Positions 11,653 through 17,408 of a stretch of 64,000 nt of DNA are shown one piece after another (positions within the stretch are counted from its first letter, which is position 1; every line of letters starts with the position of its first letter). Origin of the DNA: a virus. The notes under the pieces are model-generated. The model saw only the letters and a program-made list of their open reading frames with translations. It searched no databases and was not told the origin of the DNA. The stretch lies in the IMG/VR virus record IMGVR_UViG_3300005066_000001. The stretch is one strand, 5' to 3'. The position numbers and the translations under genes are program-made.

Positions 11653-12786
11653 CTAATACGATTTATTATGATAGAATGCGGCTGTTGGTGCATTGAATCG
11701 CGGCATTGTTGGTGCTTTATGAATTTTCTTTGTTGCTAAAAACGAAAAGACTGAAGCACAGGCATCAGGCCAATCATCTTTTCTGTCTGCTGTAGATCTC
11801 TCTCCATCAAAACTTTCAAGTTCTTTATAGAAAGCTGCAAGTGTTGCTGGTTCAAAAGTGTCTTCTACAATAGAAACCAAACCATTTTGACAAGCAGAGC
11901 TGAACGCTTCAAATCGTTTAAGTTTAGATTTGTTGGAGGGGTTAGGGTCTTCTTTTACAATAAACCCCTCATTAGTGAACATCTTAGCCATCTCGTTAAA
12001 CGCAAATGCACCAGCTTGTCCTGGATCTTTAGGAAGAACCACAATAGTGTCTGAGCCATCGTGTTTGGCTTGTAACAACATCCACGTATCACGAACACCG
12101 GGACGTTTTCTAAACCTACCATTCTGTCTAGTCAATTCATCAAAAGTTTCTTGAATATAATCACCAACAATAATATAAGTATCTTGGTTTGTTTTTAACA
12201 TTTTGATACTTGCGGTATAGTCAGGATATCTATTCTTATCAGATGGTTCAGCAGAAGCTAAGTCCCATCCTCGTGCTTCTGTGCAATTCAAAGGTACTTT
12301 GTCCAGCTTATTTAACCAACTGCGTTGGAAATAATTAGAACCTTCTGGGCGAGCATACCAGTTACCGTCCAATAGTCTGGCGCGGTTAATTGGTGACTGA
12401 GCTTTCAGTGCAGACAAATACTTTGGGTTAGATTTTATTAGTGCTGGGTTATCGAAGATAGTCCCGCTGATAAAAGTAAATGACATAGGAGGAATATAAA
12501 TCCTTTCACCATCATTTTCTTGATAACAAATATCAGGGTACGCTTCTGCTAACTCTTCCTCTGTATTAGCAAAAATAGGTTTATCATCAACAATAACGAA
12601 GTACCTAATAACTCCGTCTTTACTCTGGTCTGGATAGCCTTCTGGATCCAAATACCACTCAACGAACGAAAGCACCCAACTGTCCGGTGATGGGTTACAA
12701 GTCCCCATACAGAAGCTATCGCACTCCGCTTCAGAACGGAGACGTCCTATAAGGTATAAAAATTGAGATTGTGAGAAATGTGTCAA
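11653..12786 (-). CDS. terL: terminase large subunit, C-terminal exon (ATPase motif III plus nuclease domain)
   Basis: Contains GTCNPSPDSWVLSFVEW, which resembles the T4 gp17 TTPNG...HFYDIW ATPase coupling motif. An RNase-H-like nuclease region follows. The frame is closed by TGA at 12793-12795, so the N-terminal part is encoded elsewhere (14053-14421). Confidence 0.7.
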   Translation of the reverse strand: MTHFSQSQFLYLIGRLRSEAECDSFCMGTCNPSPDSWVLSFVEWYLDPEGYPDQSKDGVIRYFVIVDDKPIFANTEEELAEAYPDICYQENDGERIYIPPMSFTFISGTIFDNPALIKSNPKYLSALKAQSPINRARLLDGNWYARPEGSNYFQRSWLNKLDKVPLNCTEARGWDLASAEPSDKNRYPDYTASIKMLKTNQDTYIIVGDYIQETFDELTRQNGRFRKRPGVRDTWMLLQAKHDGSDTIVVLPKDPGQAGAFAFNEMAKMFTNEGFIVKEDPNPSNKSKLKRFEAFSSACQNGLVSIVEDTFEPATLAAFYKELESFDGERSTADRKDDWPDACASVFSFLATKKIHKAPTMPRFNAPTAAFYHNKSY

Positions 12787-12820
12787 TTGTGTTCACAGAG
12801 GTTCGCAACACCTCTCCCGC

Positions 12821-12975
12821 ATCATTACATGCTGCTCTATATTACTATAGAAGTTCAGATCATATCATCACCTGTTATGGTGCTTTGCGCTTCGGAGTAC
12901 CATTGGCTTGTACCCTACTCTACTTGCTTCTTCATTTACAATTAAGTAAACTATGCTTTCGATGATCGTTGCTCT
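12821..12975. repeat. intron structural module, copy A (~150 nt; paralog at 13141-13268)
   Basis: Shared blocks CTATATTACTATAGAAGTT[CG]AGA[TC]CATATCATCA, GCGCTTCGG and [AG]TCGTTGCTCTT are seen in both copies. Confidence 0.6.
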
Positions 12976-12989
12976 TTCCTTATTTATGA

Positions 12990-13085
12990 TAAGGCTTAGA
13001 TCAGGATTGTCCTCAACTTAATGGTCGGAGTTTCCCTGAGTTCACAAAGTTTATTGAGCTCAACATTCTAAGCTCATCGAAACCC
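12990..13085. repeat. intron structural module X (paralog at 13955-14050)
   Basis: AGATCAGGATTG[TC]CCTCAA[CT]TTAATG[GA]T[CT]GG[AG]GT[TC]CCCTGA[GA]TTCAC is shared with 13955-14050. Confidence 0.55.
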
Positions 13086-13140
13086 ACAAAAGAATATTGC
13101 AGACCCTGCATCGATCTTCAATGTAGTTCGTTAAACCACA

Positions 13141-13268
13141 CCAGCAGCATTACCTGCATCTCTATATTACTATAGAAGTTGAGACCATATCATCATCCTG
13201 CAATAATTACAGGATGGATAGCGCTTCGGGATACTTACCCCTACTTCCTCTCGGAATGGTCGTTGCTC
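13141..13268. repeat. intron structural module, copy B
   Basis: Paralog of 12821-12975; lies directly downstream (on the minus strand) of the HNH ORF stop codon. Confidence 0.6.
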
Positions 13269-13931
13269 TTAATTAAATTTGTAATTTTTTGAAATTTCTG
13301 TGAAGTATATCCGGCGTTTTATACAAGAAATAGACCTTTTATTAGCATTGGTAATCTCTTCTATTTCTGCATAACTTCTACCTTCTTGAAGTAATTCACA
13401 GATATTGATCACTGTTTCTACGCTTATTCTCTGGTCCCTCTTTACTACAGAGAAGTCATATTCATCAGAAATATAATTATATGATTTTTTGTTTTTTATT
13501 TCAGAAACTGTGTATTTAGGAACACCAAACATGTTAGATATATCACTATTTCTAAATCCATCACAAATTTTAGAACAAATTGCGTGAACTTGTTCATCGG
13601 TCAGCAGTGCGTTGTTTCTTAACCCTGTCCTCTCTGCGTGAACACAATTTTCAGAAGGCGTTACCCACTCTAAGTTCTCTACAGTATTATTTAATTTATT
13701 TCCGTCTTTATGATTAACTTCTTTTTTATTCTCTGGATTTTCAATAAAAGCTGTAGCTACCAAGCGATGAACTGAAAATTTATGTTTTTTCCCGTTTTCA
13801 TAACACTCTATGTACTGGTATCCTGCTGTGTCTGAGAATGGTTTTAAAAATCTGTTAGATTTTAAACTAAATATTTTACCTTCCCGTGATACGCAATAGT
13901 TTGGCTGGTCAACAAAAATCATATTTTTCAT
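13269..13931 (-). CDS. HNH homing endonuclease (intron-encoded)
   Basis: 220-aa ORF with a canonical HNH core (HRLVATAFIENP...VNHKDGNKLNNTVENLEWVTPSENCVHA). C-terminal region resembles DNA-binding modules of intron endonucleases. Embedded in the terL intervening sequence. Confidence 0.85.
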   Translation of the reverse strand: MKNMIFVDQPNYCVSREGKIFSLKSNRFLKPFSDTAGYQYIECYENGKKHKFSVHRLVATAFIENPENKKEVNHKDGNKLNNTVENLEWVTPSENCVHAERTGLRNNALLTDEQVHAICSKICDGFRNSDISNMFGVPKYTVSEIKNKKSYNYISDEYDFSVVKRDQRISVETVINICELLQEGRSYAEIEEITNANKRSISCIKRRIYFTEISKNYKFN

Positions 13932-13954
13932 TACAAATCTCCTACTATTTTCGG

Positions 13955-14050
13955 AATAATATTAAGATCAGGATTGCCCTCAATTTAATGATTGGGTGTC
14001 CCCTGAATTCACTATCTTATCATTTACATGTTACCATGTAAGGCCACCAG
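13955..14050. repeat. intron structural module X' (5' part of the HNH-containing intron)
   Basis: Paralog of 12990-13085; lies immediately 3' of terL exon 1 on the minus strand. Confidence 0.55.
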
Positions 14051-14052
14051 AA

Positions 14053-14421
14053 TTAATGGTTGGCTTCTGCTGTATCTTCGTGCTCTAAGTGGGTGTATTT
14101 AAGGTTCCCACCACCTGTTCCTTCGAAAATAATCTCCATGTCTTTTTCACGGATTCTTGGATTAAGTGGTCTGAAAAGTTTCTTGCTTTCTGTAAACAAT
14201 CCGCCAGCACCTTTAAGGGGGCCAGTTGTTCTTCGAAACATTACACCTTCAAAATTAGGATCTTGATATGCGTGTTTTAATGCTTTTATTAAAAGAAGTC
14301 TCGACTTGCCGCTACCTGCGGCACCGCCGTATATCATTACATCTACTTTTGTATCAAAAGCTTTTCGTTGTTTTCCCTCTTGAGGGGCTAAGTTAACAAC
14401 ATTATTTTGTTTAGTTGCCAA
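14053..14421 (-). CDS. terL: terminase large subunit, N-terminal exon (Walker A ATPase)
   Basis: 122-aa ORF with Walker A (YGGAAGSGKS) directly downstream of the terS-like gene. The frame runs into a stop inside the insertion, as expected for exon 1 reading into an intron. Confidence 0.75.
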   Translation of the reverse strand: MATKQNNVVNLAPQEGKQRKAFDTKVDVMIYGGAAGSGKSRLLLIKALKHAYQDPNFEGVMFRRTTGPLKGAGGLFTESKKLFRPLNPRIREKDMEIIFEGTGGGNLKYTHLEHEDTAEANH

Positions 14422-17144: not shown

Positions 17145-17219
17145 TGGCACAGGTACAGCGATTTGAACGCTGACAATCTTTTTAGAAGAAAGATATGCTA
17201 TCCATTACATCATACCTGC
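17145..17219 (-). tRNA. tRNA-Arg (anticodon TCT)
   Basis: Manual cloverleaf, 75 nt: acceptor GCAGGTA/TACCTGT (G1-U wobble); D-loop with GG; anticodon arm TCTTT-CTTCTAA-AAAGA; T-arm CAGCG-TTCAAAT-CGCTG; discriminator G and an encoded CCA. Confidence 0.65.
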
Positions 17220-17228
17220 AAGTTAATT

Positions 17229-17303
17229 TGGTGGGCCTAGATGGAATCCAACCATCCTTGAACCAGTTATGAGCTGGCTGCATTCGCAGACTGCCATAGG
17301 CCC
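17229..17303 (-). tRNA. tRNA-Met-like (anticodon CAT), atypical D- and T-loops
   Basis: Manual fold, 75 nt: acceptor GGGCCTA/TAGGCCC plus A plus CCA; anticodon arm GCCAG-CTCATAA-CTGGT; T-arm GATGG-TTGGATT-CCATC. T-loop has G at the usual C56 position and the D-loop lacks GG. Could be an initiator/elongator Met or an Ile(lysidine) tRNA. Confidence 0.5.
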
Positions 17304-17325
17304 TGTAAATCTTTAAAATACTTAG

Positions 17326-17408
17326 TGTTGGATGTGAGACTCGAACTCACGATGAGGTTTCCCTGCTGGATTACAAAACCAGTCGTATCGCCACTAACGG
17401 AATCCAAC
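17326..17408 (-). tRNA. tRNA (83 nt, long variable arm; anticodon uncertain, UGU if the loop is canonical)
   Basis: Acceptor GTTGGAT/ATCCAAC; T-arm GTGAG-TTCGAGT-CTCAC; D-loop TAGTGGCGAT; variable hairpin AGG-GAAA-CCT; anticodon region CTGGT-TTTGTAA-TCCAG with a U-U mismatch at 31-39. No encoded CCA. Confidence 0.4.

Follow-up and report, generated by a model that had tools for sequence, protein, structure and literature searches.

Group I introns in terL, the gene for the large terminase subunit (TerL), are known from the phages LL-H and rV5, and in rV5 the gene consists of three segments with one homing endonuclease (PMC3606486). Splicing has been confirmed by reverse transcription PCR (RT-PCR) for the terL intron of Pectobacterium phage CB7, which contains an HNH gene (PMC7344957), and by RNA sequencing (RNA-seq) together with RT-PCR for that of ICP1 (PMC10448857); in the Bastillevirinae, where terL holds two or three introns and small exons, both splicing and exon skipping have been demonstrated (PMC11878797). 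Here we describe terL in IMG/VR virus record IMGVR_UViG_3300005066_000001, analyzed as one stretch of 64,000 nucleotides (nt; hereafter the window). The sequence comparisons make it very probable that in this Plateaulakevirus-like Aeromonas phage terL has three exons, separated by two group I introns in tandem.

The initial annotation recognized that terL is divided over two open reading frames (ORFs) with recognizable TerL motifs, and this was confirmed. The 1,266 nt between them had been described as a single group I intron-like insertion of 1.27 kb; the group I character held, with two matches to the Rfam model RF00028, but the insertion is not one unit and consists of two group I introns around an exon of 39 nt. 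The ORFs and the gene model are as follows (aa, amino acids):

14053-14421, minus strand: terL ORF, first half, 122 aa, with Walker A GAAGSGKS
11653-12786, minus strand: terL ORF, second half, 377 aa, with GTCNPSPDSW...FVEW
14421-14056, minus strand: terL exon 1, 366 nt (122 codons), start TTG with GGAGG upstream, Walker A GAAGSGKS, last codons AAC CAT
14055-13109, minus strand: group I intron 1 (at site 1), 947 nt, with an HNH ORF inside P6; 3' end ...GAUCGAUG, with terminal G
13108-13070, minus strand: terL exon 2 (the micro-exon), 39 nt, encoding QGLQYSFVGFDEL, that is, Walker B and the catalytic glutamate
13069-12784, minus strand: group I intron 2 (at site 4), 286 nt, without an ORF; 3' end ...CACAAUUG
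12783-11653, minus strand: terL exon 3, 1,131 nt including the stop codon, opening ACA CAT TTC (THF...), with motif III (GTCN) and the Terminase_6C nuclease domain

The predicted splice junctions are AACCAT/CAGGGT and GAGCTT/ACACAT. The end of exon 1 was set by alignment with the Aeromonas phages phiA009, 2L372D, and TS9, all without an intron at site 1, and no intron separates exon 2 from exon 1 in phiA009 or from exon 3 in 2L372D; as every intron site occupied in the window is empty in some relative, the intron ends are fixed. The last base of both introns is a G, and no other in-frame position gives NHQG and DELTHF. A different end for intron 1, at ...CATTG (13119), had been guessed from repeat similarity and was rejected: it needs a phase-2 end of exon 1 without the splice-site U and adds residues missing from all homologues, whereas the end at ...GATCGATG (13109) fits. 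Intron 1 closes with AUG (13109-13111, minus strand), in frame with exon 2, so that a restart of translation would be possible in principle if intron 1 were left unspliced; this AUG is not conserved in the introns at sites 2 and 3 of relatives.

As had been noted before, exon 1 runs directly into a stop, TAA being the first triplet of the insertion, and many stops are met on reading from exon 2 into intron 2; the earlier conclusion that the insertion is not an intein, which would be translated in frame, is in agreement with this. A twintron arrangement is likewise not seen, the two cores lying side by side with 39 nt between them that are exon sequence in relatives. The insertion had also been called GC-richer, which is not the case: the intron cores have a GC content of 0.39-0.40 and the exons of 0.40, and the HNH ORF is AT-richer, with 0.31.

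Splicing of the three exons in silico gives an in-frame coding sequence (CDS) of 1,536 nt for a protein of 511 aa, predicted to contain ...AEANHQGLQYSFVGFDELTHF... and AEANHQGLQYSFVGFDELTHFSQSQ. This product has one continuous match to Pfam Terminase_6N (96.7 bits, model positions 1-214 of 215), followed by Terminase_6C (26.2 bits); exon 1 covers model positions 1-91 of the former and exon 3 positions 106-214, leaving a gap (92-105) into which the 13 micro-exon residues fall. Walker A, Walker B, and motif III lie at residues 33, 127, and 162, and the contiguous series expected of a terminase (Walker A, Walker B with its glutamate, motif III, then an RNase H-like nuclease) is found in the three-exon product only. 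Its alignment to the uninterrupted TerL proteins of Escherichia phage ESCO5 (54% identity), Rheinheimera phage Barba1S, Shigella phage Sf13, Pseudaeromonas phage KLEP7, and LTH01 shows no gaps over either junction. A solved TerL structure was also sought by sequence, with no match.

The single splice put forward in the initial annotation, ...GGGNLKY/THFSQ..., does not stand up to this comparison. It has neither a P1 U.G pair nor a terminal G at the junction, and far from giving a contiguous Walker B-to-motif III region, it drops 26 residues (LEHEDTAEANHQGLQYSFVGFDELTH) that include Walker B; its product matches Terminase_6N with 57.7 bits, over model positions 105-214 only. More generally, the whole 1.27-kb block could be removed from exon 1 to exon 3, either as one intron or by obligatory exon skipping, with the 39 nt being intronic: exons 1 and 3 join in frame at the true splice sites, the 3' ends of the two introns are 80% identical, and exon skipping dominates among the in vitro products of the SIOphi terL (PMC11878797). 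We nevertheless hold this to be extremely unlikely, as the block contains two complete, independent cores, each with its own P1 guide, and the 39 nt, an ordinary exon in 2L372D and phiA009, encode a Walker B that is conserved in every homologue. ATPases of the ASCE class need Walker B for ATP hydrolysis, and a TerL without it could not hydrolyze ATP.

Evidence for the two cores of the three-exon model comes from searches with Rfam and with intron profiles. In scans of the sub-region, RF00028 matched intron 2 at 12835-13079 with 61.5 bits (E 9.3e-15; gathering score 50), covering the full model, and intron 1 at 13160-13397 with 45.7 bits, the 3' half of the latter match being convincing. The placement by Rfam of the 5' half of intron 1 inside the HNH ORF was rejected, as homology to the ORF-less intron of phiA047 puts it at 14055-13961. 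The ORF-less introns of relatives score 85-109 bits against RF00028; among them, the ORF-less form of intron 1 scores 89-91 bits, its copy at site 1 of phiA047 (89.2 bits) having 90.9% identity to the core of intron 1 in the window, and the core of intron 2 has 96.1% identity to the site-4 intron of phiA047 and PhAER-3, which there carries an HNH ORF. Profiles of the intron family, built for nhmmer without the window sequence, matched three places in the 64 kb, all in the terL introns: intron 2 (E 3.6e-67) and the two halves of intron 1 (14062-13960, E 2.9e-19; 13270-13106, E 2.1e-37). Further copies of the family were sought in the window by profile and by motifs, and none was found outside terL. 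The internal duplications once regarded as unusual are real, but they simply reflect the presence of a second intron core: the insertion contains four collinear families of direct repeats (14-79 nt, 77-93% identity), which are the conserved segments of the two cores.

To describe the fold, eight introns of five types were aligned with their ORFs cut out. RNAalifold recovers P1, P3, P4, P5, P6, P8, P9, P9.1, and P9.2 from this alignment, and over all helices from P1 to P9.2, including P2 and the P3/P7 pseudoknot, 92.7% of the cells hold standard pairs, compared with 37-45% when the partners are slid. Changes on both sides are seen in 35 of the 65 pairs, and the observed covariation, seen among others in P3 (6 of 7 pairs), P7, P8, and P6, was reached by none of 500 shuffles; together with the Rfam matches, this supports a group I core of P3-P8 with its P3/P7 pseudoknot. 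The elements placed in intron 1 are:

14044-14059, minus strand: P1, exon CCAU and intron U paired with the internal guide GGUGG, U.G at the splice site
13967-13961 (UCUUAAU) with 13273-13267 (AUUAAGA), minus strand: P6 stem, 7 base pairs, the 3' strand including the stop codon of the HNH ORF
13183-13261, minus strand: catalytic core, P7 formed by GACCAU (13261-13256) and AUGGUC (13188-13183) and enclosing P7.1/P7.2, P3' (13223-13217), and P8

In every intron, the proposed 5' splice site falls on a U.G wobble of P1, whose U is aligned to the invariant U of the Rfam model, and the guide sequence varies to suit each of the four exon contexts; in intron 2 of the window, P1 is formed by GAGCUU and GAGCUC. 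Just 5' of the guide of intron 1, a CUG can, as read from the sequence, pair with CAG of exon 2 as P10. At the other end, the tail from P9.2 to the terminal G measures 10-11 nt in all five intron types. The predicted guanosine-binding site, the J6/7-P7 sequences GCAACGAC(C/U)A and GAUAU(G/A)(G/A)UCU, agrees with the Rfam consensus, and the first two pairs of P7 (G-C and A-U) are invariant. All five types fold two hairpins between P7 and P3' despite differing sequences; two such extra hairpins (P7.1/P7.2) are, according to what is reported from Michel and Westhof, the defining feature of subgroup IA, and their modeled counterparts here weakly suggest that both introns belong to it. The earlier remark on a UUCG tetraloop is not supported: GCGCUUCGG lies on the plus strand, antisense to the terL transcript, where the RNA reads CCGAAGCGC, a conserved stretch leading into P3'; GCGCTTCGG is likewise a plus-strand sequence and hence outside the terL transcript. 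It should be noted that, of the eight introns, six, belonging to four of the five types, have UAA right after the splice-site U, which at phase-0 sites is an immediate in-frame stop and would halt ribosomes before they reach the ribozyme.

The HNH endonuclease gene with its own ribosome-binding site, as first annotated, was recovered inside intron 1:

13269-13931, minus strand: gene for an HNH homing endonuclease of 220 aa resembling I-HmuI, looped out of P6
13939-13943, minus strand: ribosome-binding site AGGAG, 7 nt before the ATG of the endonuclease gene

The ORF is flanked on either side by a strand of P6, a peripheral helix of the intron. Its product matches Pfam HNH_3 (42.7 bits), PHROG 59 (E 2.8e-53), and the I-HmuI structure 1u3e of the PDB (E 6.7e-16); the catalytic motif HKDGNKxNNxxxNLxWVT is conserved, VNHKDGNKLNNTVENLEWVT being aligned with VDHKDGNKDNNLSTNLRWVT of 1u3e. 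The endonucleases of intron 1 in the window, of intron 2 in phiA047 and in TS9, and of the terL intron of ECML-10 share 28-42% identity. At the DNA level, 75 nt of the HNH motif region (13665-13739 of the window) have 85% identity to Staphylococcus phage IME1318_01, in a region labeled there as dUTPase.

An insertion with an endonuclease gene might also leave a gene permanently in pieces, with dead introns and a TerL that works as two polypeptides of 122 aa and 377 aa. The NrdA of Aeh1, which is split by mobE, is said to work as separate polypeptides. In GenBank, every relative has its "terminase large subunit" entered as two separate CDSs, the AUG at the end of intron 1 is in frame, and for one gene of CB7 a non-splicing HNH insertion has been reported (PMC7344957). 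For the terL described here this is very unlikely: the annotated ORFs leave out the exon for Walker B, the TTG start of the second ORF is made by the 3' end of the intron and has a stop before it, and the AUG is not conserved in the site-2 or site-3 introns. Moreover, the pairing of the core has been kept through many compensatory changes and ORF-less introns are maintained at 268-300 nt, which indicates selection for folding.

The closest relatives of the window (85-94% DNA identity) are the Plateaulakevirus Aeromonas phages 2L372D, phiA047, phiA009, TS9, and PhAER-3. After splicing in silico, the segment NHQGLQYSFVGFDELTHF is identical in all six phages, with CDSs of 1,536 or 1,542 nt. Across the alignment of the window with these five, group I introns occupy four positions in a 46-nt segment of terL, within the coding stretch AAC CAT CAA GGG TTA CAA TAT TCT TTT GTT GGC TTT GAT GAG CTT ACA:

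Site 1, after CAT: occupied in the window, phiA047, and PhAER-3
Site 2, after GGGT: occupied in 2L372D and TS9
Site 3, after GGCTT: occupied in phiA009
Site 4, after GAGCTT: occupied in the window, phiA047, PhAER-3, and TS9

Sites 1 and 4 are both empty in 2L372D and phiA009. We compared 14 Plateaulakevirus records, including 6 that are RefSeq/GenBank duplicates or a near-identical partial genome; all 14 have one or more terL introns in this 46-nt segment, and the introns at sites 1 and 2, which are 7 nt apart, never occur together in one record. A search of the phage collection and IMG/VR for an intron-free Plateaulakevirus terL found none. The possibility that terL is a decaying pseudogene, or its split an assembly artefact, is negligible. 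Nothing beyond the interruption itself speaks for it; the same architecture recurs in complete, independent genomes of viable phage isolates (phiA047, PhAER-3, TS9, 2L372D, and phiA009), the exons are under purifying selection with all changes in the micro-exon synonymous, and the related records contain no second terL, with one matching place in 12 of the 14 and two in TS9 and DL that are halves of the same gene.

The introns and their endonuclease genes appear to have moved within the genus. Intron 1 contains an endonuclease gene in the window and is empty in phiA047 and PhAER-3, and the reverse is true for intron 2, indicating that the endonuclease genes turn over independently of the ribozymes. 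Exons 1 and 3 of the window are near to those of 2L372D and TS9, exon 1 differing at 0-2 positions per 60 nt, whereas the micro-exon is identical in 38 of 39 positions to that of phiA047, whose terL is 14.5% divergent overall, and differs from 2L372D at 9 of 39 positions, all of them synonymous. Intron 1, micro-exon, and intron 2 thus seem to have been imported as one cassette, with only approximately 10-15 nt of flanking exon, a pattern consistent with the footprint expected of homing with co-conversion.

Beyond the genus, an IMG/VR contig with a TerL of approximately 53% identity has an intron of the same family at residue 125, and in the terL of ECML-10 and A145 the intron lies elsewhere, at residue 244/245. 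The equivalent of site 4 (after D-E-G) holds an intron of the same family in three IMG/VR contigs with TerL proteins only approximately 40% identical; its occupation in such distant phages marks the codon after the Asp-Glu of Walker B as a recurrent insertion point. The family is also seen outside terL: Aeromonas phage PhAER-4 (L023, 1368-2600) has two tandem introns (approximately 2083-2252 and 2403-2589) and a gene for an HNH protein of 237 aa just upstream of a tape-measure-like CDS, so that in a related phage tail genes are invaded as well, and IMG/VR 3300027985_000062 (L035, 2783-4025) has at least four consecutive introns in a tape-measure-like gene, with micro-exons down to approximately 18 nt. 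In IMG/VR 3300020049_006352 (L022, 139-250), a match to the site-2 intron stops after P5 and is followed by unrelated sequence, either an assembly chimera or a further insertion within the intron.

Several points weigh against the three-exon model with two active introns. The RF00028 score of intron 1 falls under the gathering score of 50 bits, for which the 663-nt ORF that splits the core is responsible. A scan of the whole 64-kb window in gathering mode returned tRNAs only and missed both introns; intron 2 was also recovered from the whole window in E-value mode, and a gathering-threshold scan of a long input can miss real introns, which are hidden by the speed filters. P10 of intron 2 is weak, and the P7.1/P7.2 hairpins are individually no better than shuffled sequence (z only -0.9 to -1.7). 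As none of the 14 records is free of introns, ongoing homing is not directly visible.

Under the three-exon model, the late pre-mRNA would be transcribed through both introns and each ribozyme would fold; ribosomes would stop at the first codon of intron 1, as this intron begins with an in-frame TAA. Each intron would then be excised by a guanosine-initiated, two-step transesterification, joining AACCAU/CAGGGU and GAGCUU/ACACAU into the mRNA for the TerL of 511 aa, whose Walker B would come wholly from the 39-nt middle exon. The I-HmuI-type enzyme of intron 1 would nick or cut the intron-less terL of co-infecting relatives, with repair copying the intron in, and homing into intron-less terL alleles is the most likely role of this predicted endonuclease. 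Intron 2, only 39 nt away and here without an endonuclease gene, may be carried along by co-conversion.

A more speculative role is that the intron cluster serves as a system of competition or exclusion between phages, that skipping of the 39-nt exon acts as a GTP-sensitive packaging switch, or both; we consider this unlikely. The introns at four alternative sites in all 14 records, with sites 1 and 2 never occupied together, are the reason for considering exclusion, in which case each intron would destroy the target of a rival's endonuclease. Skipping would be in frame and would yield an ATPase-dead TerL without Walker B, and so a switch on DNA packaging.

Downstream of terL lies the portal gene (Portal_Mu), and upstream a gene for a 115-aa protein of no known function. 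Promoter and terminator scans gave counts at or near the shuffled expectation. At 17145-17408 (minus strand), the window has three clustered tRNA genes, for Arg(tct), Met(cat), and Thr(tgt), of which the middle one also shows an antisense match to the Plastid-ycf2 family that stays below threshold (44.6 bits, gathering score 65.7).

The micro-exon is annotated in none of the Plateaulakevirus records, and all public genomes of the genus present terL as two unrelated CDSs that miss the 39-nt exon for Walker B; TerL trees, predictions of packaging strategy, and structure models made from these records consequently use truncated proteins. The paper on the plateau-lake Aeromonas phages makes no mention of introns (PMC6669705). 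The locus also illustrates, in a compact and natural setting, how introns and endonucleases turn over: it offers four sites in 46 nt, one and the same intron with an endonuclease gene in some phages and lacking it in others, and a very short co-conversion tract.

Among known systems, the endonuclease of the window belongs to the family of I-HmuI and I-HmuII, with which it shares the location in a phage group I intron. These enzymes are reportedly encoded in introns of the DNA polymerase gene of SPO1 and SP82, where related phages are said to hold competing introns at nearby sites; the host gene here is terL instead, and nicking by the window enzyme is predicted from its homology. In Shewanella phage 1/40 (NC_025470), whose TerL is 61.5% identical, exactly site 4 of terL (after D-E-L) is occupied by an intron, whose HNH gene follows a similar leader; the second intron of this terL, in contrast, lies at residue 275/276 instead of site 1, and its three terminase pieces are annotated. 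In the same terL (L012, 1-2950), a detached upstream piece matches residues 11-43, hinting at a third interruption near Walker A.

The Vequintavirinae, including rV5, and CB7 have a TerL of the same type (Terminase_6N/6C), LTH01 being 43.9% identical to the window, and the HNH protein of the vequintavirus ECML-10 is 41.6% identical to that of the window; the ECML-10 and A145 introns, however, are not at Walker B, and the arrangement here differs in its exon of 39 nt between two introns and, over the genus, in its four insertion sites within 46 nt. Vibrio phage ICP1 has a TerL of a related clade (34.6-34.7% identity) and tandem introns, and its HNH-3 genes reside in different introns depending on the isolate while the splice junctions stay fixed (PMC10448857), in parallel to the endonuclease gene found in intron 1 in the window and in intron 2 in phiA047, PhAER-3, and TS9; unlike in the window, its terL has a single intron and an adjoining free-standing T5orf172 endonuclease gene, the multi-intron case being the tape-measure gene. 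The Bastillevirinae (SIOphi and phiAGATE; PMC11878797) and Twort orf142 also have two or three tandem group I introns with small internal exons in one structural or packaging gene, but with Gram-positive hosts, an unrelated TerL clade, partly different endonuclease families, and splicing established by experiment, where that of the window is predicted. The two terL introns of the window are thus well supported as selfish elements of a familiar phage kind, multi-intron terL genes with HNH endonucleases being known from rV5, CB7, ICP1, and the Bastillevirinae, and the gene model of terL is corrected.

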